A stretch of DNA of 64,000 bases from an uncultured Acidobacteriota bacterium (GTDB lineage: Bacteria; Acidobacteriota; Blastocatellia; Pyrinomonadales; Pyrinomonadaceae), in contig CAWBSB010000014.1 in the NCBI GenBank assembly GCA_963791265.1, forward strand, positions 42,837 through 106,836. The letters are read 5' to 3'. The position numbers were made by a program, and so were the translations under genes. This document shows, in pieces, positions 19,229-60,601 of this stretch. Positions within the stretch are counted from its first letter, which is position 1; each line of letters starts with the position of its first letter. The notes beneath the pieces are model-generated. The model saw only the letters and a program-made list of their open reading frames with translations, was not told where the DNA came from and made no database searches.

Positions 19229-19477
19229 AAGCAGTTTGAAAAGTGCCAGCTTCTCTCTGTCCCGTCAGGGACAATTGAAAATAGCCCAGCCATTCATGGC
19301 TGGGAATAGATTCGGTATATAAGAACTGAGTCCCGTAGGGACGGCTGAAATGAGCGCGGCTCTTGGTTCAGCCGTCCCTACGGGACTCAATCATTTTAGC
19401 GGCGCTGTTTCCCAGCCATCAATGGCTGGGCTATTGTCACGTCGTCCCTAACGGGACTTTTTCAATCAGCTTCTAAG
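19221..19477. repeat. nested-palindrome element, main family (copy 3), abutting the previous element
   Basis: Shares cttctaagaag with the right end of the neighbouring element. Contains gtcccgtcagggac, cccagccattcatggctggg, gagtcccgtagggacggctgaa...ttcagccgtccctacgggactc, cccagccatcaatggctggg, gtccctaacgggac and a ttcaatcagcttctaag terminus. Confidence 0.9.
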
Positions 19478-19620
19478 AAAGCAGCGAATGCTTCTTGTCT
19501 TTATCCTGTCTATCCTGTCCATCCCTGCTCGAATCCGGCTGAGTAACCACTCACGGCTTAGATTCTTCCTGAACCAGTAGATACGCGCTCTCGCCTGAGA
19601 ACCCTGCCTGATCTCGAAAG

Positions 19621-27007: not shown

Positions 27008-27125
27008 GAAGAAATAGACAGGATTAACAGGATTATCAAGATTAAGAAGACAGGGCATGTCAGGGCAGCTTGAATGCTTAATTCTTTCATCCTGATAATC
27101 TTGTTAATCCTGTCTATATTTCTTC
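27008..27125. repeat. GACAGGAT-family element (copy 3), near-identical to copy 2
   Basis: By eye it differs from 4976-5092 at only three small positions: c/t in ggcaYgtc, a 1-nt indel in gctta(a)ttc, and the last arm bases. Confidence 0.92.
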
Positions 27126-27567: not shown

Positions 27568-27789
27568 GTCTTTGACCCTGAAAGGGTCACATACAATAGC
27601 CGGGGGCAGAGCGTAGCGTCGCCCCCGGTACTCCATGGAAAATGATTCCCGACCCTGAAGGGGTCGCATATTCAACATTGGATATACGACCCCTTCAGGG
27701 TCGAAATCTTTGCTCCTGCTGTTTCCGGGGGCGACGCGCGCACGCGCTTGCCCCCGGCTATTATATATGACCCTTTCAGGGTCAAAGAC
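27568..27789. repeat. nested-palindrome element, variant (gaccctgaaagggtc / ccgggggc...gcccccgg / cgaccctgaaggggtcg)
   Basis: Terminal gtctttgaccc...gggtcaaagac. Keeps the acaatagcc / ggctattat linkers of the main family, but the stems are different sequences. Confidence 0.85.
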
Positions 27790-28941: not shown

Positions 28942-29030
28942 AAGGAAAAATTAAAAAGGTAAAAGGCAACAGCCCCGGAGGAGAACAGCCCCTTCGGGGC
29001 TGTTGCCTTTTACCATTCTACTTTTTCCTT
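28942..29030. terminator. long hairpin between convergent genes (bidirectional terminator candidate)
   Basis: aaggaaaaattaaaaaggtaaaaggcaacagcccc pairs with ggggctgttgccttttaccattctactttttcctt. A/T runs flank it on both sides. Confidence 0.7.
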
Positions 29031-32450: not shown

Positions 32451-32618
32451 AGAAGTAGACAGGATTAACAGGATTAGCAGGATTAAGAAAACCAGATAAG
32501 TTAAATGAAGCCCGTGCATCAATCCGCCGCCGTAGCGGCAACGCTGCACACTATTCATTTAGCCTGATGCTTCTTCCCTTGACCCTGTGCATCTTGTTAA
32601 TCTCGGTCTATTGCTTCT
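32451..32618. repeat. GACAGGAT-family element (copy 4, larger diverged loop)
   Basis: agaagtagacaggattaacaggattagcaggattaagaaa ... catcttgttaatctcggtctattgcttct. Confidence 0.8.
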
Positions 32619-32708: not shown

Positions 32709-33473
32709 CTATCCCCTCAGCCAGCCGAACAGTCCGTGAACGACCGTCTCGCGGTTCTCTTCGTAGATGGCTTTCGTCAAGGGAAGGGACATCGGGCAGA
32801 CGCGGACGCAGTTCTGTGCGTTGCCGCAGTTGGTGATGCCGTCATCGCCCATGATGCCTTCCAGGCGCTCGTCGCGCGTGATCTTGCCGGTCGGGTGCAT
32901 GTTGAAGAGTCTGACTTGCGCGATGGCTTGCGGGCCGATGTAGTTGTCGCCGTCGTATTGCGGGCAGGCTTCAAGACAGCAGCCGCAAGTCATGCAGCGC
33001 GAGTAAGCATAGCGCTCGGCCACATCTTCCTGAGACATCTTCGGGCCTGGGCCTAGATCGTAAGAGCCGTCAATTTCTATCCAGGCGTGAACGCGCTTGA
33101 GGTGATCGAACATCTGCGAGCGATCAACGATGAGGTCGCGCACGTTCGGAAACTTGGACATCGGCTCAAGCGTGATGGGTTGATCCAGTTGGTCAACGAG
33201 CGCGGAGCAAGATTGTCTGACCTTCCCGTTGATGACCATCGTGCAAATGCCGCAGACCTGTTCCAGACAGTTCATGTTCCAGACGGGCGGTGTGGTGCGC
33301 TTGCCGTCGCGCGTGACGGGATTCTTTTGAATCTCCATCAGGCAGGAGATGATGTTGAGGTTCGGGCGATAGGGAAGCTCAAACTCTTCCCAGTATTGCT
33401 CGGCGTCCGGGTTCTGGCGTCTGCGAATGCGTATGACGACTCTTTGTGTTCCGTTATTAGTTTGTGCGCTCAT
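32709..33473 (-). CDS. sdhB: succinate dehydrogenase/fumarate reductase iron-sulfur subunit
   Basis: Cys clusters CGICTMVINGK, CMTCGCCLEACP and CGNAQNCVRVCP. Confidence 0.92.
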   Translation of the reverse strand: MSAQTNNGTQRVVIRIRRRQNPDAEQYWEEFELPYRPNLNIISCLMEIQKNPVTRDGKRTTPPVWNMNCLEQVCGICTMVINGKVRQSCSALVDQLDQPITLEPMSKFPNVRDLIVDRSQMFDHLKRVHAWIEIDGSYDLGPGPKMSQEDVAERYAYSRCMTCGCCLEACPQYDGDNYIGPQAIAQVRLFNMHPTGKITRDERLEGIMGDDGITNCGNAQNCVRVCPMSLPLTKAIYEENRETVVHGLFGWLRG

Positions 33474-34050
33474 CGGTTTCCGTTTCCGTTACCTTGTCAT
33501 AAACAGCGCTCAGATTGAGCGTGCATTCAATAGATGGCAAAGAGAGCGAGCTTTCCCTGCCGATAGCAGCCGTGTACTTCCATGTCGCATCGGATTGCCT
33601 GATGTACTGCTCAACGACTGGCTTGTGTTGGGAAATCAAGATGTATTCCTGCAAAGATTTTAACTGCTGGTAAGCCTGAAACTTTTTGCCTCTGTCAAAA
33701 GCTTCTGTGCTTTCCGAGAGAACTTCGATGATCAAGATTGGATTGAGAAGGACATCCGTGCGTTCGTCGTGAAACTGCGGCTCACCGCAAATAACGGATA
33801 CATCAGGATAAAAGAACTTGCGCGAATCCGGCATACGCACCTTGATGTCACTTGGCAGCGCGCTGCAAGGGCGTCCCCTGAGTTGTTGCCCAAGTTCGAT
33901 AATTACGTTTGCGACAATCTTATTGTGATTCAGGCTTGCGCCTGACATAGCGTACACCATGCCGTTGAAGTATTCGCTCTTGTAATCGGCTTGCCGTTCC
34001 AGAGCCAGATACTCTTCCGGTGATAGATAGATGTTCGCTTGCGTTGACAT
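33457..34050 (-). CDS. Uma2-family (DUF820) putative endonuclease
   Basis: LSPEEYLALERQADYKSEYFNGMVYAMSGASLNHNKIV...PDVSVICG...IIEVLSEST is the Uma2 pattern. AT-richer than the flanks. Overlaps the sdhB start by 17 nt. Confidence 0.75.
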   Translation of the reverse strand: MSTQANIYLSPEEYLALERQADYKSEYFNGMVYAMSGASLNHNKIVANVIIELGQQLRGRPCSALPSDIKVRMPDSRKFFYPDVSVICGEPQFHDERTDVLLNPILIIEVLSESTEAFDRGKKFQAYQQLKSLQEYILISQHKPVVEQYIRQSDATWKYTAAIGRESSLSLPSIECTLNLSAVYDKVTETETDERTN

Positions 34051-34100: not shown

Positions 34101-36122
34101 TCAGACCTCGTCGGATTTACCACCTGCGTCCTCGATTGATTTGCCTTGCTCTTTCCTCGACGCGTCGTCGTTCACAGGATCGTTGACCTTCTCTTTGTCC
34201 TGCGCCCAGACGACCGCGCCGCTCAGGTTTTCCGGCTTCTGTTCTTCTCCGCCCAGTGGAACTTGCTTTGCACCATCTTTCGGCGGGAGTCCCGAAGCGG
34301 TCGAAGCCGCAGTAGTGACAGCGGCCTTGCCCGTCTCCTGCTTGCCTTTGCTGTAATCGCGCTTGCGCGGTTTGATGAGCGAAGTTTCAACGGCCTCGTA
34401 AGAAAGCACAGGGCCTTCGCCCGAATATTCCGCGATCGTAGTCTTGAGGAAGTTCTCATCATCGCGGTTCGGAAAGTCCGGCTTGTAGTGAGCGCCGCGC
34501 GATTCGTTGCGATTGAGCGCACCCAGCGTGATGACGCGCGCCAGTTCCAGCATGTTCTTCAGGTGACGCGCGTGCGGCAGAGCCATCGTCGCCCACAGGT
34601 TCGAGTCGTTGATGGAAATGTGCCGGTAGCGATCCAGCAATTCGAGGAGTTTCGCGTCCGTCGCCTGCAATTTGTCGTTGTAGCGCACGACCGTCACGTT
34701 GTCCGTCATCCACTTGCCCATCTCTTCGTGCAGGATGTACTGGTTCTCCGTGCCCGATTGCTTGATGAGCGCGTCGTTAATCTCTTCCTGGCGCTTTAGC
34801 TCCTGTTCGTAAATGCGCGACCCGTCAGCGCCGTTGCGCTCAACCCCTTTCGCGTACTCGATGGCAGCGGGCGCGGCGACGAAACCGCCAAAGACGCAAC
34901 TGACAAGAGAGTTTGCGCCGAGACGATTGGCGCCGTGAATCGAGTAGTCGCATTCGCCTGCTGCCAGCAGTCCCGGAATGTTCGTGCGCTGGTCGAAGTC
35001 AACCCACAGGCCGCCCATTGAATAATGCACGCCCGGAAAGATTCGCATCGGCACATGGCGCGGGTCGTCGCCGACGAACATCTCATAAATCTCAAGGATC
35101 GCGCCGAGTTTGCGGTCGAGCGTTTCAGCCGGGATGTGCGAGAGATCGAGATAGACTTGATTCTCACCACCAATGCCCATGCCGTCCAGACAGACCTGAA
35201 AGATTTCTCGCGTGGCGATGTCGCGCGGAACGAGGTTGCCGTAAGCAGGATATTTCTCTTCGAGAAAGTACCAACGCTCATCTTCGGGAATTGAAGAGGG
35301 ATTGCGCGTATCATTCGGCTGTCGCGGAACCCAGACGCGACCGCCTTCGCCGCGCGCCGATTCAGACATCAAGCGCAACTTGTCTTCGCCGGGGATAGAA
35401 GTCGGGTGAACCTGTATGAACTCGCCGTTGGCATATTTCGCGCCTTGCTGGTAGCAGGCTGAAACGGCGCTGCCCGTACAGACCATCGAGTTGGTTGACT
35501 TGCCGAAGATGAGTCCCGGCCCACCCGTCGCCATAATCACTGCATCGGCTTTGAAGGCTTTGAGTTCAAGCGTCTGCAAGTTCATCGCGACAAGGCCGCG
35601 ACAGACCCCGTGATCGTCCATGATGAGCGACATCATCTCCCAGCCTTCGTACTTCTGAACCTGACCTTCGGCTTCGCGGCGTCTCACCTGCTCGTCGAGC
35701 GCATAGAGAAGTTGTTGCCCGGTGGAAGCTCCCGCAAAGGCTGTGCGGTGATGCTTCGTTCCGCCGAAGCGACGAAAGTCGAGCAAACCTTCTTTGGTGC
35801 GCGAGAAGGGAACGCCCATGCGGTCGAAGAGGTAGATGATGGCAGGAGCCATCTCGCACATGGCTTTGGCTGGCGGCTGGTTCGCCAGAAAGTCGCCGCC
35901 GTAAACCGTGTCGTCAAAATGCTCCCAGGTCGAATCGCCCTCGCCCTTGGTGTTGACCGCGCCGTTGATGCCGCCCTGAGCGCAGACAGAGTGTGAGCGT
36001 TTGACCGGGACGACCGAGAAGAGGTCAACCGAGTGTCCGCCTTCGGCGATCTTCATGGCCGCCGCCAACCCCGCGAGGCCGCCGCCGACGACTGCTATCT
36101 TGATTCCGTTGCTTGCTGCCAT
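34101..36122 (-). CDS. sdhA: succinate dehydrogenase/fumarate reductase flavoprotein subunit with a low-complexity C-terminal tail
   Basis: IAVVGGGLAGLAAA FAD motif, SHSVCAQGGING, and HPTSIPG...RGEGG. Start at MAASNG (36122), 1 nt after the sdhC stop. Confidence 0.92.
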   Translation of the reverse strand: MAASNGIKIAVVGGGLAGLAAAMKIAEGGHSVDLFSVVPVKRSHSVCAQGGINGAVNTKGEGDSTWEHFDDTVYGGDFLANQPPAKAMCEMAPAIIYLFDRMGVPFSRTKEGLLDFRRFGGTKHHRTAFAGASTGQQLLYALDEQVRRREAEGQVQKYEGWEMMSLIMDDHGVCRGLVAMNLQTLELKAFKADAVIMATGGPGLIFGKSTNSMVCTGSAVSACYQQGAKYANGEFIQVHPTSIPGEDKLRLMSESARGEGGRVWVPRQPNDTRNPSSIPEDERWYFLEEKYPAYGNLVPRDIATREIFQVCLDGMGIGGENQVYLDLSHIPAETLDRKLGAILEIYEMFVGDDPRHVPMRIFPGVHYSMGGLWVDFDQRTNIPGLLAAGECDYSIHGANRLGANSLVSCVFGGFVAAPAAIEYAKGVERNGADGSRIYEQELKRQEEINDALIKQSGTENQYILHEEMGKWMTDNVTVVRYNDKLQATDAKLLELLDRYRHISINDSNLWATMALPHARHLKNMLELARVITLGALNRNESRGAHYKPDFPNRDDENFLKTTIAEYSGEGPVLSYEAVETSLIKPRKRDYSKGKQETGKAAVTTAASTASGLPPKDGAKQVPLGGEEQKPENLSGAVVWAQDKEKVNDPVNDDASRKEQGKSIEDAGGKSDEV

Positions 36123-36123
36123 A

Positions 36124-36813
36124 TCAGTAAAAGAGACCTCCCCACAAGCCGCCCGGATGCACAAAAGCCGTCAAGGCGTTAATCGCCACCGCCAATAGCG
36201 CCACGCCGAAAGCTATACAGGCATAGCCGGTCAGACGTTGCGCGCGCGCGCCAATCGTAATACCCCAGTCAACGAGAAAGAGCCAGATGCCGTTGGCGAA
36301 GTGCCAGACGGTAGACGTGATTCCGATGACGTAGATGGTAAATATCCAGGTCTTACTAAACTCGCCCTTGACGATAGAGAATGCCTCGCGAGGATTATGC
36401 GCGACAGAGTGGCCGTAAGTTTCCAGTCCCGGAATGATGCCGAAGCGCATATTCAGCACGTGAAAGGCGATGAAGAAGAAGAGAATCACGCCCGTCATGC
36501 GTTGAATCGTGTAGAACCAGTTGCGCGGGTACGGGTATGCCAGATTGTTGGGACGCGCTTCCCACGTAATGACTAAGCCGTAGACTGCGTGATAGATCAG
36601 CGGAATGAAGATGAAGGTGATTTCGACGAGCAGGATATAGGGAATGCCTTGCAGCCACGCGACCGCTTCGTTGAAGTCGCTAACGCCCGTGTTCGGGTTG
36701 ACCGCCTTCGAGTTGGTATAAAAATGCTCCAGCAGAAATGCGCCGAGCGGCACAATACCTGAAAGCTGGTGCAGCTTGCGCAAGATGAAAGTCCTGCTCA
36801 AACGGATAGCCAC
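36124..36813 (-). CDS. sdhC: succinate dehydrogenase cytochrome b subunit (type-B, 5-TM, b558 family)
   Basis: RKLHQLSGIVPLGAFLLEHF resembles the B. subtilis-type SdhC N-terminus. Five TM helices with conserved His. GTG at 36813 chosen for its gaaggag SD 8 nt upstream; the ORF-track start is 36867. Confidence 0.75.
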   Translation of the reverse strand: MAIRLSRTFILRKLHQLSGIVPLGAFLLEHFYTNSKAVNPNTGVSDFNEAVAWLQGIPYILLVEITFIFIPLIYHAVYGLVITWEARPNNLAYPYPRNWFYTIQRMTGVILFFFIAFHVLNMRFGIIPGLETYGHSVAHNPREAFSIVKGEFSKTWIFTIYVIGITSTVWHFANGIWLFLVDWGITIGARAQRLTGYACIAFGVALLAVAINALTAFVHPGGLWGGLFY

Positions 36814-37061
36814 AGAAAACACTCCTTCGCCCGAAGGCTCTTCAAACGAGCACTGAGAAAGCTTCAACGAGGCGGGATGATTTAAGATTGCGCCGAACGC
36901 CGGAAATTATATGACTTGGCGGACGACCCGTGCAACCACATACCGCCTCCTCTTTCGACATGTATCCTCCCGCCTCTCCTTGGCACCATCAATGATAGCC
37001 GCCCATTCATATAAGGTAAAATGAAAAATCTTGCGCTTCTTGTTCAGAAATACTTATAATT

Positions 37062-37150
37062 CAGTGGTCAGTGGTCAGTAGTCGGTGGTCAGTTAAAAGC
37101 AAAACGCTTTTGTTCTTAACTGACCACTGACCACTGACCACTGACCACTG
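37062..37150. repeat. heptamer-repeat hairpin, family B
   Basis: cagtggt cagtggt cagtagt cggtggt cagttaaaag ... cttaac tgaccac tgaccac tgaccac tgaccac tg. The LysR ATG follows 4 nt later. Confidence 0.9.
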
Positions 37151-37154
37151 ATTC

Positions 37155-38045
37155 ATGCAGATTGAGACGCTCAAAATCTTTTGTGATCTGGTCGAGACGC
37201 AGAGTTTCTCGCAGGCGGCGGAGCGGAATTTCGTGACGCAGTCGGCGGTCAGCCAGCAGGTGCGCGGGCTGGAAGAGAAGTTCAAGCGTCGCCTGTTGGA
37301 GCGCGTGCGCGGGCGGCGCGAGGTGCGCGTGACGGATGCCGGACGGAGTTTTTACGAAGAGAGCCGGAGCGTATTGGCCGCTTATGGTGGCTTGCAGGAG
37401 CGCATGCGTAGCCTCGATGGAGCGGTGAGCGGGACGGTGCGTGTGGCGACGGTTTACAGCATCGGCCTGCACGAGTTGCCGCCCGTCGTGCGTCGCTTCA
37501 TGGCGCTTTATCCGGCAGCGAAGATTGATCTCGAATACAGCCGCACGACGCGCATCGTGCGTGATGTGTTGAGCGGCGCGATTGAGCTTGGCATCGTCGC
37601 TTACCCGGAAAAGCGTCGTGGATTGACCATCACGCCTCTGCCCGGCGACCGTCTCGTTCTCATCTGTCCGCCATCGCATCCTCTGGCGGCGCGAAAGAAA
37701 GTTAAAGCCGCAGAACTCGGCGGGCAGGACTTCGTGCATTTTGAGCGCGACATCCCGACGCGCCGCGCGACGGATCGCATCTTCAAGGCGCATGGTGTGG
37801 CGGTTCATCGCGTCGCAGAGTTTGATAACATCGAGACGATCAAGCGCGCCGTCGAGGTCGGCTTCGGGCTAGGGATAGTTCCGCGCCCAAGCGTCCTGGA
37901 TGAGCAAAGGAGCGGTCAACTGGCGGTCGTCGCACTGGCCGAACCCGAATGGACGCGCACCGTCGGCATCATCCACAGAAGCGACCGCACGCTCGGCATC
38001 GCCGCGCGGAAGTTTATCGAATTGCTGAAGAGCAGTGATAAGTGA
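37155..38045 (+). CDS. LysR family transcriptional regulator
   Basis: N-terminal HTH (FCDLVETQSFSQAAERNFVTQSAVSQQVRGLE) plus a LysR substrate-binding-like C-terminus. Confidence 0.88.
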   Translation: MQIETLKIFCDLVETQSFSQAAERNFVTQSAVSQQVRGLEEKFKRRLLERVRGRREVRVTDAGRSFYEESRSVLAAYGGLQERMRSLDGAVSGTVRVATVYSIGLHELPPVVRRFMALYPAAKIDLEYSRTTRIVRDVLSGAIELGIVAYPEKRRGLTITPLPGDRLVLICPPSHPLAARKKVKAAELGGQDFVHFERDIPTRRATDRIFKAHGVAVHRVAEFDNIETIKRAVEVGFGLGIVPRPSVLDEQRSGQLAVVALAEPEWTRTVGIIHRSDRTLGIAARKFIELLKSSDK

Positions 38046-38117
38046 TGGGTGATAGGTGATAAGAAAGAACGGTTGTTTTCTCTTATTACCTATCACCTAT
38101 CACTTATCACCCATCAC
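38035..38117. repeat. heptamer-repeat hairpin, family A (GTGATRG / CYATCAC)
   Basis: gtgataa gtgatgg gtgatag gtgataa gaaa ... cttatta cctatca cctatca cttatca cccatcac. The LysR stop TGA (38043-45) lies inside the left arm. Confidence 0.9.
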
Positions 38118-38124: not shown

Positions 38125-39546
38125 ATGGAGTTAACAAAATTGTCGGCCAGGACACTCGCTGCGATGATGCGTGGGCGAGAGGTTTCTCCTGTGGAAGTCG
38201 TCGAGGCTTACTTGCGCCGGATTGAGCAGTTGAATCCGCAGCTTAATGCTGTTGTGACGATTGCGCCGGATGCAATCGAGTGGGCGCGGGAGGCCGAAGA
38301 CGCGATTATGCGTGGACGTGAGATTGGGATGCTGCACGGCGTTCCCCTCACCATCAAGGATACGATTGAAACCAAAGGATTGAGGACAACGAGCGGGTCG
38401 CTGCTTCGTGCGGCGCATGTTCCCGAGACGGATGCCACGGCGGTGACGCGCTTGAAGGCTGCGGGCGCGATTATTCTTGGTAAGACTAATGTGCCGGAGA
38501 TGGCGATTCCTTATGAGTGCGATAACCTCGTCTTTGGCAGGACGAATAATCCTCACGACTTGATGAGAACTCCGGGCGGGTCGAGCGGCGGCTGTGCGGC
38601 GGCCATCAGCGCGTGCCTCACACCCGCTGGGCTGGGCAGCAACCTTTCGGGTTCGATTCGTGTGCCCGCGCACTTTTGCGGCATCGTCGGGTTGAAGCCG
38701 ACGATTGGGCGCGTGCCTTCAGCGGGACATTTTCCGCCAGCCATGGGGGCGCTCTCGCTCGGCGCAGTCGTCGGCCCGATGGCACGCTACGTCGAAGACC
38801 TCTCTTTGCTCTTGAATGTTCTGATGGGAGTGAGCGCGGCTGACTCTGCTTCCGCGCGGGTGGAGGAATCATTGGAAGAGGCGTTGATGAAGATGCGCGG
38901 CTGGCGCGTCGCATCATATGTGAACGAGATCGGCGGCGCGGTGACGGATGAGACGCGGCAGGCGATTCACGCGGCGATGCGTGTGCTGGAAGAGGCTGGG
39001 TTCGTCCGCTGTGAAGAAGAGCCGCCCGGTCTGGAACAGGCGGGCGCTTTATGGCCTCGGTTGTTCTCGCGTGCGTCCATGATTCAATTGCGCGACGTTT
39101 ACAGCGGGAAGGAAGAGAAAGCCGGGGCGGTTGTTCGTGCCGTGCTCGCTGCCGCAGACAAACAGCCTTCGCCCGCGCTTGATGAGTCTGCCAGCGCGTG
39201 GACTGAGCGAGACCGTCTACGCCTCAATCTCTTGAAATGGATGGAGAGAACTCCTCTCATCATCGCGCCTGTCGGGGCAGTTGCGGCGTTCGAGCATGGC
39301 GCGCGCCGCGTTAAAGTGGGCGCGGAGATGTTAAGCGTCTTCCGCGCCTTCGATTATTCGCGCGCCTTCAACGTTCTCGGTTTACCTGCCGTCACTGTTC
39401 CGGCGGGACGCTCTCTTGAAGGCTTGCCCATCGGCGTTCAGATTATCGGCAGACCGTTTGAGGAAGAAGCCGTCCTCGCCGCAGCTTCCGTCCTCGAAGC
39501 AGCGCTCGGCGGGTGGATGCGACCGCCAAACGCGATGATGGCGTGA
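38125..39546 (+). CDS. amidase-signature family amidase
   Basis: GGSSGG motif (TPGGSSGGCAAAI) and a Ser-cisSer-Lys-type context. Start at MELTKL (38125), since the ORF-track extension crosses the repeat. Confidence 0.85.
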   Translation: MELTKLSARTLAAMMRGREVSPVEVVEAYLRRIEQLNPQLNAVVTIAPDAIEWAREAEDAIMRGREIGMLHGVPLTIKDTIETKGLRTTSGSLLRAAHVPETDATAVTRLKAAGAIILGKTNVPEMAIPYECDNLVFGRTNNPHDLMRTPGGSSGGCAAAISACLTPAGLGSNLSGSIRVPAHFCGIVGLKPTIGRVPSAGHFPPAMGALSLGAVVGPMARYVEDLSLLLNVLMGVSAADSASARVEESLEEALMKMRGWRVASYVNEIGGAVTDETRQAIHAAMRVLEEAGFVRCEEEPPGLEQAGALWPRLFSRASMIQLRDVYSGKEEKAGAVVRAVLAAADKQPSPALDESASAWTERDRLRLNLLKWMERTPLIIAPVGAVAAFEHGARRVKVGAEMLSVFRAFDYSRAFNVLGLPAVTVPAGRSLEGLPIGVQIIGRPFEEEAVLAAASVLEAALGGWMRPPNAMMA

Positions 39547-39550
39547 CGGA

Positions 39551-39660
39551 GAAGAATTTAGACAGGATTTACAGGATATACAGGATTAAAAAGAGATAAG
39601 AATCAGTGCTACGCTTTTCTCTTCATGTTCATCTTGTTAATCCTGTCTAAATTCTCTTCC
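39551..39660. repeat. GACAGGAT-family element (copy 5)
   Basis: gaagaatttagacaggatttacaggatatacaggattaaaaag ... catcttgttaatcctgtctaaattctcttcc. Confidence 0.85.
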
Positions 39661-39770
39661 GTTACGCCCTTTATTCCTCGTCAACGAATCCGTTATAGTT
39701 AGCGCACAACAGCAGCAATGAGCATTCGGGCGCGTGCCCATCAGTTTCAGCTACTTCAGCGGAGGTCTCA

Positions 39771-42177: not shown

Positions 42178-42316
42178 GAAGGATGAGGGATGAACAGCAG
42201 GAGTCAGCACACAGGAGACAGGAGACAGAGTAGAACCAAAAGCGGTTTCCGCCTCTTCATTCTGACTCCTGACTCCTGAATTCTGGATTCTGTTTTTCTT
42301 CATCCCTCATCCCTTC
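42178..42316. repeat. heptamer-repeat hairpin (GGATGAG outer, AGGAGAC/CTGACTC inner)
   Basis: Outer stem gaaggatgagggatgaa / ttcatccctcatcccttc. Inner caggagtcag...aggagac aggagac versus ctgactc ctgactc ctg. Confidence 0.85.
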
Positions 42317-42327
42317 GCTCTCCTCCC

Positions 42328-44785: not shown

Positions 44786-44940
44786 GGACCACAGATGAAC
44801 GCTGATGGACACGGATGAAAAAAAAGAATTCATCACCAAGGCACAAAGCCACTAAGAAAATTAAGCAGTCTCCCTTTTGTGTCTTCGTGTCTTTGTGGTT
44901 AATTTCCGTATCTGCGTTTATCTGCGTCCATCTGCGGTCC
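44786..44940. repeat. decamer-repeat hairpin with an inner second hairpin
   Basis: ggaccacagatg aacgctgatg gacacggatg pairs with catccgta-type units (ccgtatctgcg tttatctgcg tccatctgcg gtcc). Inner accaaggcacaaagccac / gtgtctttgtggtt. Confidence 0.85.
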
Positions 44941-46381: not shown

Positions 46382-46531
46382 GTAGGACAGGCATTCCTGC
46401 CTGTCAAGCGTGCGCCAGCACGCTGATAGTTTTCGCTGACAGAGTATTTAGTTTTCGCTGACAGAGTATTCGCGCTGACGCGCTCAATGACAGGCAGGAA
46501 TGCCTGTCCTACGACAGACAGGAATGTCTGT
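46382..46531. promoter_or_regulatory. divergent-promoter region with three copies of a 19-20-bp palindrome GACAGGCANNNNTGCCTGTC and a 22-bp tandem duplication
   Basis: gacaggcattcctgcctgtc (46386-405), gacaggcaggaatgcctgtc (46489-508) and the degenerate gacagacaggaatgtctgt (46513-31). tagttttcgctgacagagtatt occurs twice (46427-48 and 46449-70). Confidence 0.6.
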
Positions 46532-47494: not shown

Positions 47495-47498
47495 AGCA

Positions 47499-47568
47499 GT
47501 GATAGGTGATAGGTGATGGATGATAAGAGAAGGCGTTTTCCTATCACCTATCACTTATCACCTATCAC
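47499..47568. repeat. heptamer-repeat hairpin, family A
   Basis: gtgatag gtgatag gtgatgg atgataa gagaa ... cctatca cctatca cttatca cctatcac. Fills the interval from the stop (47492-94) to the ATG (47576). Confidence 0.9.
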
Positions 47569-47575
47569 TTGAATT

Positions 47576-48294: not shown

Positions 48295-48906
48295 TTGAAT
48301 TGGCTCTGGGACAAGATTATAAACGGTCTGACGCACGTCAAAGATTTTTTACTCGCTTATGGCCCGTTCGGGTTGTTCGCCATCGCGCTGCTGGATTCGG
48401 CCTTGATTCCTTTGCCCGGCGGGGCCGATGTCGTGATGATTCTGCTGACGATTCAGCATCCTTCGTGGATGGTGATCTACGCGGCGGCAGCCACCTTGGG
48501 TTCGGTCGCCGGGTGCGTGATTCTCTATTACATTTCCCGCAAAGCCGGACGCCGTGCCCTCGAACGCTTTTCCGAAAGTAAGCAGGCGCGCGTCAAAGGT
48601 TTGATTGATCGTTACGATGTGCTCTCGGTTCTCGTCGCCTCAATTCTGCCTCCGCCCTTTCCCTTCAAGTTGTTTGTTATTAGCAGCGGCGTCTTCGGGC
48701 TAAACATTGTGCGCTTCGCCATCGCCATCGCGGTTGGGCGTGCCGTTCGTTTCCTCCTGGAAGGTTATCTGGCGGTGCACTACGGCGATCAAGCGGACGT
48801 TTTATTCAAACTCTATTTCCCCTGGATTGGCCTGGGGCTGGCCTTACTCATTATTCTGATTTTTGTCGGGCGGAAATTGTGGCGTAAAAGGGCAAAGGCA
48901 GTATGA
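48295..48906 (+). CDS. DedA/YqaA (VTT-domain) family membrane protein, paralog 2
   Basis: TTG start. LPPPFPFKLFVISSG and GRAVRFLLEGYLAVHYG parallel paralog 1. Confidence 0.7.
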   Translation: MNWLWDKIINGLTHVKDFLLAYGPFGLFAIALLDSALIPLPGGADVVMILLTIQHPSWMVIYAAAATLGSVAGCVILYYISRKAGRRALERFSESKQARVKGLIDRYDVLSVLVASILPPPFPFKLFVISSGVFGLNIVRFAIAIAVGRAVRFLLEGYLAVHYGDQADVLFKLYFPWIGLGLALLIILIFVGRKLWRKRAKAV

Positions 48907-48907
48907 A

Positions 48908-48982
48908 GTGATAGGTGATGGGTGATACGTGATAAGACAGAACGCGTTTTTCTCTTATCACCTATCACCTATTACCTATCAC
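48908..48982. repeat. heptamer-repeat hairpin, family A (between convergent genes)
   Basis: gtgatag gtgatgg gtgatac gtgataa gacag ... cttatca cctatca cctatta cctatcac. Confidence 0.9.
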
Positions 48983-48986
48983 TTCT

Positions 48987-49863: not shown

Positions 49864-50436
49864 TTGCGAGCCGAAGAAGTCATCGAAAGATTCAGGCGAA
49901 CGGGCGCGTTGCTCGAAGGCCACTTTGTTTTGTCGAGCGGATTGCACAGCACAAACTATTTGCAGTGCGCGCTGCTGCTGCAACATCCGGCGGAAGCCAC
50001 GCGGTTCGGCAGCGCCCTTGCCGAACAATTCCGCGATGAAAGAATCGAGACAGTCGCCGCGCCCGCGATTGGTGGATTGATAATTGGCTACGAAGTCGCA
50101 CGCTCGCTCGGCGCGCGATTCATCTGGACCGAGCGCGACGCTGGCCAGATGACACTGCGTCGCGGCTTCACCGTCCGCTCAGGCGAGAGCGTGCTTGTCG
50201 TCGAAGATGTCATCACTACGGGAGGCTCTACGCGCGAGACGGTCGAAACACTACGCAATGCCGGTGCACGAGTCGTCGGCGCGGCTTCCATCATTGATCG
50301 TTCTTCGGGGCGCGCGGATGTCGGCGTCCCGCGCGTCGCCCTCGCCACTCTGGATGTGCCTGCGGTCGCCCCCGCCGCCTGCGAAGCCTGCGCGCGCGGC
50401 GAAGAGGCCATCAAACCGGGAAGCAGGAAGCCGTGA
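49864..50436 (+). CDS. pyrE: orotate phosphoribosyltransferase
   Basis: LLEGHFVLSSGLHS and the PRPP motif VLVVEDVITTGGSTRET. TTG start. Confidence 0.9.
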   Translation: MRAEEVIERFRRTGALLEGHFVLSSGLHSTNYLQCALLLQHPAEATRFGSALAEQFRDERIETVAAPAIGGLIIGYEVARSLGARFIWTERDAGQMTLRRGFTVRSGESVLVVEDVITTGGSTRETVETLRNAGARVVGAASIIDRSSGRADVGVPRVALATLDVPAVAPAACEACARGEEAIKPGSRKP

Positions 50437-50505
50437 TGGGTGATGGGTGATAGGTGATAAGAGAAACGCTTTTACCTATCACCTATCACCTATCACCTAT
50501 TACCT
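50433..50505. repeat. heptamer-repeat hairpin, family A
   Basis: gtgatgg gtgatgg gtgatag gtgataa gagaaac ... cctatca cctatca cctatca cctatta cct. The pyrE TGA (50434-36) lies inside the left arm. The truA ATG (50506) is the next base after the right arm. Confidence 0.92.
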
Positions 50506-51264
50506 ATGAATTATAAGTTGACGCTTCAGTACGACGGCACGGATTTTCATGGCTGGCAGGTGCAGGGTGCGGAGCGCACGGTGCAGGGCGAGTTGGCGCG
50601 TGTGCTGACGCTGCTTGAGGGAAGCGCGGTTGTGGTGCATGGGTCGGGGCGGACGGATGCGGGCGTTCATGCAGAGGGGCAGGTGGCGAGCGTGCAGCTT
50701 AATCGTGAGTTCGCGCCCGATAAGCTGCTGAGCGCGATTAACGGAAATCTGCCGCGCGATGTGCGCGTCATAGAGGCTGCGATAGTTCCCGATGATTTTC
50801 ATGCTCGTTATTCGGCGCGTGGAAAATCTTACGTCTATAGAATCTTCAATGCGCCCGTCATGTCGCCCTTCTGGAGTCGTTATGCGTTGCACGAAGCGCG
50901 GCGGCTGGACATCGAACGCATGCGAAAGGCCGCACGGCTCTTTCTGGGCGAGCATGATTGGACTGCCTTTTCTGCGGCGCAGTCGGACACAAAGACGCGC
51001 GTCAGAACTATCACCGGCCTTGAAGTGACGGAGTTGATGGACGAACGAGGGCGCGGGCGGCTCATTGAAATCAGGCCAAGCGCCGACGGATTCCTGCGCT
51101 ACATGGTGCGCTCCATCGCGGGCACGCTGCTCAGCATCGGTCGCGGGGAAATGAAAGAGGAACTCATCACGCGCGCGATAAACACCCGCGACCGCTCGCT
51201 CGTCGGCGCGACCGCCCCCGCACACGGCCTGACACTGGTCAGCGTAGATTACGAAGAGCAGTGA
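50506..51264 (+). CDS. truA: tRNA pseudouridine(38-40) synthase
   Basis: LQYDGTDFHGWQVQ and GSGRTDAGVHA (catalytic Asp). Confidence 0.92.
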   Translation: MNYKLTLQYDGTDFHGWQVQGAERTVQGELARVLTLLEGSAVVVHGSGRTDAGVHAEGQVASVQLNREFAPDKLLSAINGNLPRDVRVIEAAIVPDDFHARYSARGKSYVYRIFNAPVMSPFWSRYALHEARRLDIERMRKAARLFLGEHDWTAFSAAQSDTKTRVRTITGLEVTELMDERGRGRLIEIRPSADGFLRYMVRSIAGTLLSIGRGEMKEELITRAINTRDRSLVGATAPAHGLTLVSVDYEEQ

Positions 51265-51296
51265 TAGGTGATGGGTGATAGGTGATAAGAGAAAAC
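51261..51296. repeat. family A heptamer array, left arm, separated from its partner by an inserted element
   Basis: gtgatag gtgatgg gtgatag gtgataa gagaaaac. The truA TGA (51262-64) lies inside it. Confidence 0.85.
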
Positions 51297-51520
51297 AGTT
51301 CTTTCTGTCCCGTCAGGGACATTTGATGATAGCCCAGCCATTCATGGCTGGGTAACAGAACGGTAGAGATGATTAAGTCCCGTAGGGACGACCGAAGGGA
51401 AGCGAGCCTCTGTTCAGTCGTCCCTACGGGATTCAACCTATAAAACCACGTTTGATTCCCAGCAATAAATTGCTGGGCTATTGTCAGCCGTCCCTGACGG
51501 GACTTTTCGATCAGCTTCTA
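51297..51520. repeat. nested-palindrome element, main family (copy 5), inserted inside a family A hairpin
   Basis: gtcccgtcagggac, cccagccattcatggctggg, aagtcccgtagggacg...cgtccctacgggatt, cccagcaataaattgctggg, gtccctgacgggac and a tcgatcagcttcta terminus. Confidence 0.9.
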
Positions 51521-51522
51521 AA

Positions 51523-51599
51523 TGGTAGGTAATGAGAGAAACGCTCGTTCCTATCACCCATCACTTATCACCTATCACCTATCACCCATCACCCATCAC
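51523..51599. repeat. family A hairpin remainder (degenerate left arm plus long right arm)
   Basis: tggtaggtaatgagagaaacgctcgtt then cctatca cccatca cttatca cctatca cctatca cccatca cccatcac. Confidence 0.85.
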
Positions 51600-52477: not shown

Positions 52478-52484
52478 ATAAGGA

Positions 52485-52562
52485 GTGATAGGTGATGGGT
52501 GATAGGTGATAAGAGAAACGCTTTTTCTTATCACCTACCACCTATCACCTATCACCTATCAC
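52485..52562. repeat. heptamer-repeat hairpin, family A
   Basis: gtgatag gtgatgg gtgatag gtgataa gagaaac ... cttatca cctacca cctatca cctatca cctatcac. Lies between the uppS stop (52475-77) and the cdsA ATG (52567). Confidence 0.92.
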
Positions 52563-52566
52563 TCGA

Positions 52567-53385
52567 ATGTCTCGAATCATCACCGCGCTCATCGTCCTTC
52601 CGGTTCTCATCGCTTCAATCTTGATTTCATGGCTCGCGCCTTTGTTTGTGGCGCTGGCGCTCTCGGCGATGGTGCTGGGGCTATACGAGTTCTGGCTGCT
52701 GGCGAAGCGGCGTGGGATTAAGCCGGATGTGGTCGTCGGGTTTGCGGGTGCGGCGGCGCTGTTTACAATCTTCTATTTCGACAGGCCGTCGGAAGCACCT
52801 TTCTTGTTATTACTCATCCTGCCCGCGTTGACGATTGCTGCTCTGGCGGCGGCGATGCTGCGCGGCGCTCCCTTCGACAATATGATTGCGTCGGTGGGGG
52901 CGACCGTGCTGGGCGTGATGTACGTCGCCTTTCTCGGCGGTCATCTCATCGCCGTGCGAATGGGTTTTACGCAACAGCGCGCGGCGCACATGCTGGGTTT
53001 TTTCTTCCTCGTCATCATGGGGTCTGACACGGGAGCTTATTACACTGGCCGCGCCTTTGGTCGGCACAAGCTCGCGCCTAAGATAAGTCCGGGGAAGACG
53101 TGGGAGGGCGCAGTCGGAGGCATGCTAGCGAGTTTGTTGATGGGAGGAATCGCGCACTACTGGTTCTTCCCCGAATTGCCATTAAAGCTGGCGCTTCCGC
53201 TCGCGGCGCTGATGAATATTCTGGGCGTGCTCGGAGATTTAACGGAAAGCGCACTAAAACGTGGTGCGGGCGCGAAAGATGCGGCGCAGATTCTCCCCGG
53301 ACACGGCGGCCTGCTCGACCGCCTCGATAGCTTGCTCTTCAACGCACCCGTCCTCTACTATTTTGGACGACTGTATTTTGGATAA
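52567..53385 (+). CDS. cdsA: phosphatidate cytidylyltransferase
   Basis: SDTGAYYTGRAFGRHKLAPKISPGKTWEG signature. Multi-TM. Confidence 0.92.
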   Translation: MSRIITALIVLPVLIASILISWLAPLFVALALSAMVLGLYEFWLLAKRRGIKPDVVVGFAGAAALFTIFYFDRPSEAPFLLLLILPALTIAALAAAMLRGAPFDNMIASVGATVLGVMYVAFLGGHLIAVRMGFTQQRAAHMLGFFFLVIMGSDTGAYYTGRAFGRHKLAPKISPGKTWEGAVGGMLASLLMGGIAHYWFFPELPLKLALPLAALMNILGVLGDLTESALKRGAGAKDAAQILPGHGGLLDRLDSLLFNAPVLYYFGRLYFG

Positions 53386-53483
53386 GTGGTCAGTTAAAAG
53401 AAAAACTTTTATTGTCTCGGAGTCTAATTCCAGCACCGCCGAGCGCCACCGGTTCTTAACTGACCACTGACCACCGACCACTG
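53386..53483. repeat. heptamer-repeat hairpin, family B (short left arm, larger loop)
   Basis: gtggtcagttaaaag ... cttaac tgaccac tgaccac cgaccac tg. The cdsA TAA (53383-85) abuts it, and the dxr ATG (53487) follows 3 nt later. Confidence 0.85.
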
Positions 53484-53486
53484 ATT

Positions 53487-54680: not shown

Positions 54681-54713
54681 AAATGCAAAATGAAAAATGA
54701 AAAATGCAAAATT
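54681..54713. repeat. heptamer tandem array AAATGMA x4-5
   Basis: aaatgca aaatgaa aaatgaa aaatgca aaattg, directly after the dxr stop. Confidence 0.85.
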
Positions 54714-54770
54714 GTGGCGGAGAACCATATTTGATTAACCTTAGTTCGGCATCAAAAGAATGGCCTCCAC

Positions 54771-54912
54771 CAGCCCCGGAGGGGCGACAGAAATTCAAGA
54801 TACGTTGTAACGCATATTGGACTTCTGTCGCCCCTTCGGGGCTCGATAATGATGTTTGTGCTGTGACCCCGGGCTAGCGCCCGGGGCTACAGTCTGCCGC
54901 CCCTGACGGGGC
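54771..54912. repeat. nested-palindrome element, partial variant (centre plus right arm)
   Basis: cagccccggaggggcgacagaa ... ttctgtcgccccttcggggct, ccccgggctagcgcccgggg and gcccctgacggggc. Confidence 0.75.
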
Positions 54913-54974
54913 TATTGCCTTTTGCCTTTTTACTTTTTACTTGTTCCCTTTTGCCTTGTTCGCCTTTGCCTTGT
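54913..54974. repeat. T-rich heptamer tandem array (TTTGCCT / TTTTACT)
   Basis: attgcct tttgcct ttttact ttttact tgttccc ttttgcc ttgttcg cctttgc cttg. Resembles the right arm of the 28942-29030 hairpin. Confidence 0.8.
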
Positions 54975-55056: not shown

Positions 55057-56538
55057 ATGACGGACGATAACAAGACGGCCAAACCGAAGCTACCATTATC
55101 GCGCATCGTCGTTCCGGCGCTCGTCGCGCTGGCAGTCATTTTCTGGTACAAGGGTTATATTGATGTAAAAAGTATCCTTGCCTTCATTTTCATCCTGGGC
55201 GCGGCGGTCGTCATCCACGAGTTTGGCCATTTTATCGTCGCTAAGATGCTGAAGATTCGCGTCGAGACGTTCTCCGTAGGCTTCGGCCCGCGCATCTGGG
55301 GACGAAAATGGGGCACAACCGATTATCGGCTGTCGGCAGTTCCGCTCGGCGGCTACGTCAAACTCGGCGGCGATGAATCGAACGCCCCCATCGAAGGCGA
55401 GGGCGCGTCAGACATTCCCGAAAAAGAGCAGTTTAATTTGCGCCCGCGCTGGCAGAAGTTTCTGGTCGCGGTGGCTGGGCCGGTGATGAATATTCTAACG
55501 GCGCTGGCCATTCCTTTCATCGGCGGGTTGATGTATGGCGTGCCTGTTCCTCCGGCTCCGGTTGTCAAAGAGATCAGACAGGGCGGCGCGGCTGAGGCGG
55601 CAGGGCTGCGTGTCGGTGATCGCATCGTCGTCTTCAACGGCTATGAGCATCCGAAATGGGATCGCATCAGGGGCGACGTTCTGCTGTCGCCGGAAAGACC
55701 GCTGCCTGTAGTCGTGGAGCGCGAAGGGCAGCGCGTCAATCTCACGCTGACGCCCGCGAAAAGGGTGGAAAGCGGAGAGATTATGGGCGACATGGGCTTC
55801 GATCCGGATTACGGTGATCTGCCAATCATCGTTGCTGGCGTGACGCAGGATTCGCCCGCCGCAAAATCAGGCTTGCAGCGGGGTGATCACCTCATCAGTA
55901 TCGGCGGCGAGGCCGTGAGCAGCAGCCAGCAGATAGTAAATTACATCAAGGCGCATCCGACAGAGCCAATTCAGTTCGTGATTGAGCGCGGAGGGCAGCG
56001 CAAAGAAGTGACCGCGACGGGACGCATGGCGGGCGGAAGACTGGGTCTCTCGCCGGATGAAGAGTTGCCGCGCGAACACGTCGGTACACTTGCGACCGCT
56101 CGTTACGCATTGGATTTCAATCTTGAAATCCTGCGTCTTACGGGCAAGGCTCTGGGGCAACTCTTTAGCGGAGAACGCTCCGCGCGCAATACTGTTTCGG
56201 GGCCGCTTGGGATTTATGAAGCAGCCTCGAACGCCGTTAACGAAGCGGGCTGGGATGGACTCTTCGCCATGCTGGGATTCCTGAGCTTGAGTCTGGGCGT
56301 TTTCAATTTGCTGCCAATCCCTGTGCTTGACGGTGGCGCAATCTTCCTGCTGCTCGTCGAGGCTGTCATGGCTCTGGGCGGGTGGAAATTGTCCATGCGC
56401 GTGCGCGAGCGAATCCAGCAGGTCGGCTTCGTCATGCTGCTTCTCTTGATGGGATTCGTCATCACCAACGATTTGCTCAAAAAAGTCTCGCGCAGCCAGG
56501 AAGAGACGAAGCCTCCGGCGGCGACGCAACAGAAATAA
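55057..56538 (+). CDS. rseP: RIP site-2 metalloprotease
   Basis: HEFGH zinc motif in TM1, two PDZ-like segments, and NLLPIPVLDGG. Confidence 0.92.
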   Translation: MTDDNKTAKPKLPLSRIVVPALVALAVIFWYKGYIDVKSILAFIFILGAAVVIHEFGHFIVAKMLKIRVETFSVGFGPRIWGRKWGTTDYRLSAVPLGGYVKLGGDESNAPIEGEGASDIPEKEQFNLRPRWQKFLVAVAGPVMNILTALAIPFIGGLMYGVPVPPAPVVKEIRQGGAAEAAGLRVGDRIVVFNGYEHPKWDRIRGDVLLSPERPLPVVVEREGQRVNLTLTPAKRVESGEIMGDMGFDPDYGDLPIIVAGVTQDSPAAKSGLQRGDHLISIGGEAVSSSQQIVNYIKAHPTEPIQFVIERGGQRKEVTATGRMAGGRLGLSPDEELPREHVGTLATARYALDFNLEILRLTGKALGQLFSGERSARNTVSGPLGIYEAASNAVNEAGWDGLFAMLGFLSLSLGVFNLLPIPVLDGGAIFLLLVEAVMALGGWKLSMRVRERIQQVGFVMLLLLMGFVITNDLLKKVSRSQEETKPPAATQQK

Positions 56539-56605
56539 GTTACGGGTTACGAGTTTCGAGTTGCGGATTAAGCAGACTCGTAACCCGTAACTCGAAACTC
56601 GAAAC
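56539..56605. repeat. heptamer-repeat hairpin (GTTACGR / CGTAACY, with GTTTCGA / TCGAAAC)
   Basis: gttacgg gttacga gtttcga gttgcgg ... actcgta acccgta actcgaa actcgaa ac. Starts on the base after the rseP TAA. Confidence 0.9.
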
Positions 56606-56618
56606 TAAAGGCAGTTGA

Positions 56619-60588: not shown

Positions 60589-60601
60589 AACACCTTCCTG
60601 A

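Follow-up and report, generated by a model that had tools for sequence, protein, structure and literature searches.

What kind of sequence brackets a regulatory gene on both sides with long hairpins whose arms are themselves tandem arrays of a 7-nt unit? The question is raised by a 64,000-nt stretch of contig CAWBSB010000014.1 (assembly GCA_963791265.1) from an uncultured bacterium of the Pyrinomonadaceae, in the Acidobacteriota. This whole stretch is called the window below. A LysR regulator gene is flanked there by two palindromes, both of which had been described in the original prediction. Our reading, which we hold as somewhat probable, takes such elements for palindromic heptamer-array repeats that are selfish or neutral: they would be maintained at the DNA level, tolerated where genes are coupled at a junction, and shaped by selection on what a transcribed and translated junction permits. 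The three features at the LysR locus are the following.

37155-38045, LysR regulator gene.
37061-37151, CAGTGGT palindrome 5' of the LysR ATG, consisting of (CAGTGGT)~4.7, an apex CAGTTAAAAGCAAAA-CGC-TTTTGTTCTTAACTG (A-rich, then T-rich, with a CGC loop) and (ACTGACC)4.7.
38034-38117, GTGATRG palindrome between the LysR stop codon and the amidase ATG, consisting of (GTGATRG)~4.3, an apex and (CYATCAC)~4.9.

The stability of the two elements was examined by folding them as RNA, with z-scores taken against dinucleotide-preserving shuffles (n = 200). The CAGTGGT palindrome folds with -70.6 kcal/mol (z = -14.6, shuffles around -22) and the GTGATRG palindrome with -54.3 kcal/mol (z = -11.5, shuffles around -19). 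In both cases none of the 200 shuffles was as stable, and the stems of the single-stranded folds are almost without interruption. Five more heptamer hairpins of the window gave z-scores from -5.7 to -13.9. The CAGTGGT hairpin lies in a divergent intergenic region and ends 3 nt 5' of the LysR ATG (37155). The GTGATRG hairpin overlaps the other end of the gene: the final LysR codons and the TGA stop (38043-38045) lie inside its 5' arm, from the terminus GAAGAGCAGTGATAAGTGA, and the likely in-frame ATG of the amidase gene (38125) follows 7 nt past the stem.

The distribution of the elements was examined in the window and 160 related loci, 1.9 Mb in total. The relatives of the window Dxr and CdsA proteins all belong to metagenome-assembled genomes (MAGs) of Pyrinomonadaceae/Blastocatellia (Acidobacteriota) or to soil metagenome contigs, the closest amino-acid identities to window proteins being 85% for genome contigs and 90% for metagenome contigs. 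Together with the Acido-Lenti-1 motifs present in the window, this agrees with the non-cyanobacterial host that had been predicted. The gene cluster at 46.6-57.7 kb (hypothetical, two VTT/DedA, RNase T-like, phosphoribosyltransferase, truA, uppS, cdsA, dxr, rseP, ispG) keeps its synteny in over 100 of these 160 loci.

Strict arrays, defined as at least three tandem copies, numbered 125 at period 7, and 4, 7, 5, 4 and 3 at periods 5, 6, 8, 9 and 12, respectively. A Markov control contained none at period 6 or above. An inverted partner, defined as a reverse-complement array within 150 nt, was present for 102 of the 125 strict heptamer arrays (82%). There were 325 strong hairpins, 145 of them with periodic arms, and here too the period was mostly 7 (128 hairpins), with 9 in 11 cases, 8 in three, 10 in two and 4 in one. 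The 128 period-7 hairpins are built from 66 distinct units on a constant design of direct array, short apex and complementary array, as the original prediction had it. A typical element measures 72-104 nt, with a stem of 21-31 bp and an apex of 17-58 nt, and stems are up to 44 bp long. Period 7 is a lineage-wide rule, and the elements are a property of the whole Pyrinomonadaceae clade.

Chance or an error of assembly or consensus has a negligible likelihood as the source of these structures. Mis-assembly of tandem repeats and palindromes is possible in principle, but the same architecture recurs in more than 60 independent assemblies, chromosome-level ones included (locus L031, which is OY969701.1, and locus L036, on a 5-Mb contig). 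Chance is opposed by the folding scores (z from -5.7 to -14.6, with 0/200 shuffles matching) and by the empty Markov control. Because many independent assemblies agree, the elements are neither an assembly artefact nor limited to the window, and on both points the original prediction held.

Changes in unit number were followed in close pairs among the relatives, rather than in the window's own species, for which no second genome was found; an exact look-up of the window Dxr protein also returned no record. Loci L001 and L082 are 99.8% identical over 9.3 kb, where they differ by 14 substitutions and a sole indel, a single CTGAAAA unit of a 3' arm. Between L104 and L152 (93.7% identical) there are two indels, of 1 nt and of 14 nt, the latter amounting to two units, and one CAGTGGG unit separates L152 from L146. 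The arms gain and lose whole units by slippage; assembly error could account for part of the 7-nt copy-number differences between MAGs. The slippage half of the slippage-plus-palindrome mechanism offered with the original prediction is borne out by the 7- and 14-nt indels in the arms, and slippage together with a process that preserves the palindrome is the best reading. The window elements, however, are dispersed copies, described next, and not independent local products of a generating mechanism. As a separate observation, a 152-nt block of uppS (L082, 4338-4489) is absent from the L001 MAG at 8775/8776, through either deletion or assembly error.

The six GTGATRG copies of the window have the same order of unit variants, [TAG][TGG][TAG][TAA], the same apex, AAGAGAAA-CGC-TTTTTCTT, and the same terminus, AGAGCAGTGAT. 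This terminus provides the C-terminal codons and the stop of two unrelated genes, LysR and TruA (...GAAGAGCAGTGA). The three CAGTGGT copies likewise have a common apex, CAGTTAAAAG, and a common end, ..CCACTGATT, directly 5' of an ATG. Since variant order, apex and termini are common to the copies, the window families are dispersed copies of one master each, and an independent in-situ origin of every copy is ruled out for them. In the survey set, units were shared (with at most one mismatch) by 21.6% of hairpin pairs within a locus and by 6.0% of pairs between loci. L104 and L146, which are 91% identical, carry a CAGTGGG and a CAGTTTT family at one and the same junction, and the CAGTGGG+CAGTTAAAA family is found at a second junction in the L104 lineage, where L152, a near relative of L104, shows it. 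Within one genome, then, entire elements are copied from one intergenic site to another.

New families may nonetheless be born in place. The junction g49990|g50506 of locus L029, which is otherwise empty, reads AAGCAGT|AAGCAGT|GAAC, in which a heptamer of the ancestral CAGTGA stop/start overlap has been duplicated to two copies. This proto-array is possibly a snapshot of the birth of an array and suggests that new families arise in situ.

Different species carry different units at one junction. Hairpins at the same junction of different genomes share units in 12.5% of pairs, compared with a background of 4.6%, and the proportion reaches 29% at rseP|ispG. Families with recognisable apexes (CAGTTAAAA, GTGATAAGA) are found again in several species. 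When the 14 orthologous rseP|ispG hairpins were aligned, 15 of 19 pairs stayed paired through two-sided changes, and an identical substitution recurred at the equal position of successive units. Across these 14 species a GT is invariant at fixed positions of the unit while the other five positions vary. An element can therefore persist at a junction across species while its unit changes in all copies and in both arms, in a form of concerted evolution.

Seven syntenic junctions were compared across the relatives. A strong hairpin, that is one with a score of at least 13, was present in 8% to 53% of the genomes depending on the junction, and the period was 7 in 81 of the 83 periodic cases. The placement of 75 non-redundant heptamer hairpins was then measured. 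The median gap from the stop codon to the stem is 2 nt, with 25 of the 75 hairpins overlapping the coding end, and that from the stem to the next start codon is 10 nt. In genomes without a hairpin at such a junction, the stop and start codons often overlap or abut (TAATG, ATGA, GTGA). The elements sit almost exactly from stop to start, at junctions that are otherwise tightly coupled, as indicated by the codons at the stem ends and by the overlapping codons of the empty relatives. No Shine-Dalgarno (SD) sequence precedes the window genes that lie 3' of a hairpin, whereas 13 of 46 window genes overall have a strong one.

With stable hairpins at gene ends, Rho-independent terminators or attenuators between genes come to mind. 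Three or four T follow some stems, as in ..CACTGCTTTTCC and ..GTCTTTATG, and one copy lies between convergent genes. However, neither focal hairpin has the GC-rich stem-loop and T-run of an intrinsic terminator, and neither was called terminator-like. More generally, the stems are not GC-rich, measure 21-44 bp and are followed by no run of five T or more, the T-rich tract being within the apex and not 3' of the stem. Most copies also belong to a conserved operon in which essential genes run co-directionally, and end 1-10 nt 5' of the next start codon. A role in termination is therefore highly improbable.

The arrays also bear on annotation. They alter or add protein termini, and are likely to mislead gene callers through spurious GTG/TTG starts and to break short-read assemblies. 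The open reading frame (ORF) list of the window places GTG/TTG starts inside the arms, for instance a GTG at 38056 for the amidase gene, the likely ATG of which is at 38125, and similarly in the ORF at 8786-9373.

Whether pairing is maintained in DNA or in RNA was examined from the stem mismatches of 75 hairpins between co-directional genes. G·T/T·G mismatches numbered 33 and A·C/C·A mismatches 30, and the score of sense-strand hairpins gained no more from permitting G·T than from permitting A·C. Selection on a sense-strand RNA should leave more G·U than A·C, and looks unlikely as the source of the pairing, given the equal mismatches and the missing wobble gain. This strand symmetry points to a palindrome that is kept up at the DNA level, and not by selection on the sense RNA. 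Correction of quasipalindromes by template switching, in which one arm templates the other, is established in Escherichia coli.

In our reading as selfish or neutral repeats, the elements would be small non-coding dispersed repeats, a lineage-specific relative of repetitive extragenic palindromic (REP) sequences, of MITEs (miniature inverted-repeat transposable elements) and of heptanucleotide repeats of the short tandemly repeated repetitive (STRR) type. The complementarity of the arms may be renewed by fold-back or template-switch copying of one arm from the other, or by replacement with fresh copies. Tolerance in operon junctions would follow from self-complementarity: the insert would fold away in the mRNA, stop and start would be reunited, and translational coupling would survive. 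The polarity of the arms, with a G-rich, C-poor 5' arm and a G-poor 3' arm, may result from purifying selection on what the junction tolerates.

Several observations weigh against this reading. The polarity itself (G>C in the 5' arm of 99 hairpins, G<C in 22) and the order of the apex, A-rich and then T-rich, are not predicted by a strand-symmetric DNA process. Since a palindrome reads alike on both strands, the polarity is a true 5'-to-3' rule. Nor does a DNA-level process predict the TCAGT core (ACTGA on the 3' arm) that is enriched in the units, or the invariant GT of the 14 rseP|ispG species, and the period of 7 is likewise outside what this simple model explains. The persistence of the rseP|ispG hairpin at only 55-75% RseP identity could equally be due to selection for function. 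As to the means of copying, neither the window ORFs nor the 20-kb loci that were covered include a transposase, the window ORFs include no RAYT-like gene, and the six GTGATRG and three CAGTGGT copies showed no consistent target-site duplication. With neither a transposase nor a target-site duplication, gene conversion and transposition cannot be told apart. GAGC adjoins three left ends of GTGATRG/CAGTGGT copies. No other obvious partner gene was seen in the window, where only a Uma2-family gene was noted.

That gene (PF05685, a putative restriction endonuclease) lies at 33457-34050 on the minus strand, between the genes for the iron-sulfur (32709-33473) and flavoprotein (34101-36164) subunits of succinate dehydrogenase. 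The Uma2 family is greatly expanded in cyanobacteria, which carry heptamer repeats too.

The conservation of place invites a functional interpretation, in which the host selects intercistronic RNA hairpins for the stabilisation or processing of the transcript (REP-like 3' protection, RNase III sites), or for the juxtaposition of stop and start in SD-less re-initiation. The arrays would then be no more than the simplest means by which a long stem is made and its length altered. Dozens of species do keep the position at several junctions of one essential operon, and pairing is retained through two-sided changes. Stop and start lie at the feet of the stem without an SD sequence. The G-poor 3' arm adjoins the start codon, and NTG triplets occur in 12 units when read as 3' arm compared with 30 as 5' arm. 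In Beggiatoaceae, cyanobacteria and Nostoc, too, comparable arrays of heptamers adjoin start codons. On the other hand, selected RNA helices normally show an excess of G·U, which the strand-symmetric mismatches do not. No junction has a strong hairpin in more than about half of the species, and many species have a simple stop/start overlap instead. Families are swapped between 91%-identical genomes, copies also occur between convergent genes, and some apexes contain large insertions. Host selection for such RNA hairpins is accordingly considered unlikely.

A more specific proposal is that these hairpins, and the (NNACTGA)n arrays that abut starts in several phyla, constitute a translational device that holds stop and start side by side, terminating ribosomes being handed across the base of the stem to an SD-less start. 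The G-poor, UGA-bearing 3' arm would allow the handover, which would be a bacterial counterpart of ribosome shunting or termination-reinitiation. Slippage of units would tune the length of the stem, and a factor might read the 7-nt period. We regard this device as quite improbable.

A related candidate function, stop codons in all three frames, was rejected as a general rule. A stop triplet is present in either arm of 47 of the 66 units, where about 40 are expected. The CAGTGGT, GGAGTCT and AGTTCAA families have none in the 5' arm, and the 3' arms have only a modest excess of TGA. Unpaired arrays were considered as a sense-specific class and do not form one, C>G in 14 and G>C in 9 not being a significant difference. 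They look like half-elements beside the expected gene end.

The composition of the units was examined for a shared core. Among cyclic trinucleotides of the 5' arm, CAG was observed 22 times against 6.6 expected, AGT 31 against 11.8, and TCA 18 against 5.7. With this core and with apex motifs common to families, the claim that the units are unrelated between families does not stand. A core that returns every 7 nt could be a periodic binding site. A DNA- or RNA-binding protein would read TCAGT/ACTGA, or a GT, once per unit, the arrays being regulatory or architectural sites, or sites of a mobilising enzyme. HutP, for example, reads UAG-N4-UAG-N4-UAG. Such sites would account for the enrichment of CAG, AGT and TCA in 5'-arm units and for the GT that is invariant in the 14 orthologous hairpins. 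TAACTGA arrays are known from distant phyla, and the authors of a Nostoc study postulate a heptamer-binding partner (bioRxiv 10.1101/2022.06.06.494920).

The core was also searched for in IMG/VR. Stretches of (CAGTGGT)3 numbered 58 and those of (TAACTGA)3 107, compared with 5 and 16 for two composition-matched control heptamers. Many of the CAGTGGT matches are again inverted arrays, on contigs of 32-69% G+C. This excess would fit the binding of a protein, but the comparison rests on two control heptamers. Further points against binding sites are the 66 different units, about half of which lack AGT and 14 of which lack GT (for instance GGGATGA, GATTTTT and AGGAGGC), and the absence of a candidate protein among the window genes. 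Enrichment of the core may also stem from common descent within families, or from local CAGTGA stop/start overlaps that acted as seeds. Periodic binding sites therefore seem distinctly unlikely. For the protein reading periodic stems that the original prediction offered, the analysis gave evidence neither way. The ACTGA core ties the window elements to the TAACTGA repeats of other phyla and to the Nostoc heptamers, a tie that, with two controls only, is a lead and not a result.

Two side observations were made on the IMG/VR matches (loci L175-L232 and L254-L333). On several contigs (CAGTGGT)n is paired with (ACTGATT)n, so that each unit contains two G·T wobbles. Some few matches lie in giant-virus-like contigs of 32% G+C.

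The inventory of the window was established with Tandem Repeats Finder and our own hairpin scan. It comprises 14 heptamer-array palindromes and about 10 palindromes with units of 9-10 nt, that is around 24 loci. The predicted count of more than 20 loci was thus recovered, as were the families: GTGATRG (6 loci), CAGTGGT (3), GGAGTCT/GAGTCAG/GGATGAG (3), GTTACGR (1) and a degenerate AAATGMA/TTTGCCT pair. They occupy about 24 of some 55-60 spacers, and so many intergenic regions rather than most of them, as had been stated. All 14 heptamer loci of the 64 kb are intergenic or overlap gene ends only. Besides the two at the LysR gene, the heptamer loci are the following.

9331-9411, GGAGTCT palindrome, between a Rieske-protein gene (minus strand) and a chlorite-dismutase-family gene (plus strand).
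13724-13797, CAGTGGT palindrome, from the acylphosphatase stop (13721) to the phosphoribosyltransferase ATG (13800), with the 3' end ..CCACTGATT|ATG.
42180-42320, nested composite palindrome, with inner CAGGAGW/WCTCCTG arms inside outer GGATGAG/CTCATCC arms.
47498-47570, GTGATRG copy, between a stop at 47494 and an ATG at 47576.
48905-48985, GTGATRG copy, between convergent genes, VTT/DedA-like (plus strand) and RNase T-like (minus strand).
50433-50507, GTGATRG copy, with the end of the phosphoribosyltransferase gene in its 5' arm and the TruA ATG (50506) overlapping the last unit of its 3' arm.
51261-51599, GTGATRG copy with a split apex, arms at 51261-51287 and 51550-51599 and an insert at about 51296-51540; its 5' terminus GAAGAGCAGTGA furnishes the TruA stop.
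52483-52564, GTGATRG copy, filling the spacer from the uppS stop (52477) to the cdsA ATG (52567).
53385-53484, CAGTGGT element, its 5' arm truncated (53385-53397) and separated by a 58-nt loop from the 3' arm (53459-53484), which ends in ..CCACTGATT|ATG at dxr; orthologous elements of identical apex are found in L085, L146 and L152.
54681-54972, degenerate pair of an AAATGMA array (54681-54712) and a TTTGCCT-like array (54915-54972), with about 200 nt of other palindromic elements between the arms.
56538-56606, GTTACGR palindrome, beginning at the rseP stop codon (TAA|GTTACG..) and orthologous to AGTTCAA/GTCCAAA/GTTTCAA hairpins in relatives.
62908-62997, GAGTCAG palindrome, directly 5' of a DNA polymerase III delta'-like gene (minus strand, ATG 62905).

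The families with units of 9-10 nt have the look of common MITE-type elements in which the terminal inverted repeats are periodic.

643-743, GACAGGAT element, MITE-like, about 100 nt, the terminal inverted repeats of which are three 9-nt units (ACAGGATTA).
4980-5088, 27014-27117 and 39540-39668, further GACAGGAT copies, with half copies at 32459-32486 and 19502-19524.
7069-7185, inverted arrays of 8-10-nt units, GCAGAGAN and CTCTGCGTN, flanking an internal palindrome.
44786-44940, inverted degenerate arrays of about 10 nt, ..CGCAGATR.. and ATCTGCGTNN, about 90 nt apart.
60502-60590, arrays of the approximately 10-nt unit NNACACGAAG, with a shorter complementary arm; it forms one family with the hairpin at 2093-2166 (common termini GAACCACG..CGTGGYTC).

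The apexes of some heptamer palindromes host other elements. The insert of 51261-51599 is a nested palindromic element of about 200 nt (51307-51505) with an Acido-Lenti-1 hairpin, and 54681-54972 is interrupted in a comparable manner. Nested hairpins of two families occur at 42180-42320 and in loci L003, L009 and L108. Insertion may thus be favoured or tolerated in apexes, or the palindromes may grow from their centre. Insertions of other elements in the apexes are as expected for junk-tolerant sites.

Other repeats of the window were noted alongside. The insert at 51307-51505 belongs to a second family, with further members at 14840-15037, 19280-19435 and 57764-57926. These are palindromic, about 160-200 nt long, and nested at three levels, with an outer GTCCCGTCAGGGAC, middle TAGCCCAGC..GCTGGG hairpins and an inner GAGTCCCGTAGGGACGGCTGAA. 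The middle hairpins match Acido-Lenti-1 (RF01687) at 51458-51504, 57898-57944 and 57746-57792 (minus strand), so that in this window the 'sRNA' motif belongs to a palindromic element that is dispersed. The fourth match, at 54867-54913, lies outside the second family, within the 54681-54972 pair. Small GC-rich palindromes with CCCTGAAGGG or CCCCGGAGG..CCTTCGGGG cores (19098-19152, 27650-27703, 28942-29030 and 54772-54843) constitute a further REP-like family, distinct from the heptamer elements. A 131-nt palindrome at 46382-46512 has perfect outer stems of 25 bp and an exact 22-nt tandem duplication (46427-46470). Finally, a coding tandem repeat of 21 nt, or seven amino acids (periods 42 and 63 also scored), lies at 17970-18179 in ORF 17822-18346 (minus strand), which has no Pfam match.

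The palindromic heptamer form would be a clade-wide, high-density feature in a major soil phylum. With more than 100 syntenic genomes that have filled and empty junctions, slippage, arm-to-arm correction, copying within a genome and concerted evolution can be followed at the resolution of a single unit. Period 7, polarity and the TCAGT/ACTGA core bear on the over-representation of heptamers in bacteria and on their possible role in the initiation of translation.

The elements were compared with known systems. No paper was found in the literature on such elements in Pyrinomonadaceae, Blastocatellia or other Acidobacteriota, and a scan of the window with Rfam 15 returned two tRNAs and the four Acido-Lenti-1 matches, none on a heptamer hairpin. 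The short intergenic palindromes of the REP, bacterial interspersed mosaic element (BIME), REP doublet (REPIN) and MITE classes are similarly abundant, form families, lie in operons and at gene ends, receive nested insertions, and differ in their copies between close relatives. REP stems, however, are of about 10-15 bp, while those described here are of 21-44 bp with internally periodic arms, and no RAYT/transposase or consistent target-site duplication was seen with them in the window. REP sequences are imperfect palindromes of 20-40 bp with a conserved GTAG or CGTC tag at one end, whereas the elements here measure 72-104 bp and the tag is absent from their termini AGTGAT.. and CAGTGG... Here, unlike in the REP and MITE classes, several unrelated-looking families have one architecture.

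The STRR heptanucleotides resemble the window arrays in having 7-nt units in at least three tandem copies, dispersed between genes. Their units CCCCAGT and CAACAGT carry the CAGT core, and TTGGTCA, the nearest unit, is 6/7 identical to the window's GTGGTCA. The host here is a member of the Acidobacteriota and not a heterocystous cyanobacterium, and its arrays are palindromic with an apex and occur as dispersed copies. In heterocystous cyanobacteria the STRR arrays (Mazel 1990, as cited in PMC4692102 and PMC4679880) are mainly direct, and only a few paired repeats of Nostoc could form inverted repeats (PMC4692102). Heptamers are over-represented among long simple sequence repeats, and polymerase slippage is the suggested cause and the only published idea for period 7 in the work of Mrazek (2007) as it is presented in later papers (PMC4679880, PMC4692102).

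The TAACTGA repeats of Beggiatoaceae, cyanobacteria and Bacteroidetes are direct repeats, with 169 direct sets and one inverted set (MacGregor 2015, PMC4679880). They lie directly 5' of start codons, most commonly with their end 1 nt upstream, and usually with no SD sequence between (PMC4679880), and TTTTGAA/TTCAAAA repeats occur near start codons in Nostoc 7120 (bioRxiv 10.1101/2022.06.06.494920). The 3' arms described here are often NNACTGA, such as CCACTGA ending in ..ACTGATT|ATG, and have the same proximity to the start codon, ending at a median of 10 nt 5' of it. An exact TAACTGA occurs once, at the apex of the CAGTGGT family. The TAACTGA repeats are direct and favour one unit, whereas here the array is the arm of a hairpin and the units are many.

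The closest parallel is in Xanthomonas, where GGGAATC arrays form 70-75 convergent pairs per genome that are capable of folding into stem-loops (Rehm et al. 2015, PMC4692102). Their position between the same genes is conserved among species, length and sequence vary, and the single or inverted type is kept (PMC4692102). With inverted heptamer arrays published there, and start-abutting arrays elsewhere (PMC4679880; bioRxiv 10.1101/2022.06.06.494920), the elements are not of the unprecedented kind that the original prediction had supposed. Tandem intergenic heptamers in convergent pairs are common to both lineages, an inverted partner being present here for 102 of 125 arrays. In Xanthomonas the unit is essentially a single one, G-rich and able to form G-quadruplexes, as opposed to at least 66 units here, most of them without G-tracts of three or more, and several families per genome. 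In another phylum than Xanthomonas, the inverted form is the rule (82%), the apex is conserved, whole elements are copied, and the space from stop to start is filled. What is new relative to the known cases is the combination of predominantly palindromic arrays, many families with several per genome, the copying of whole elements and stop-to-start filling.

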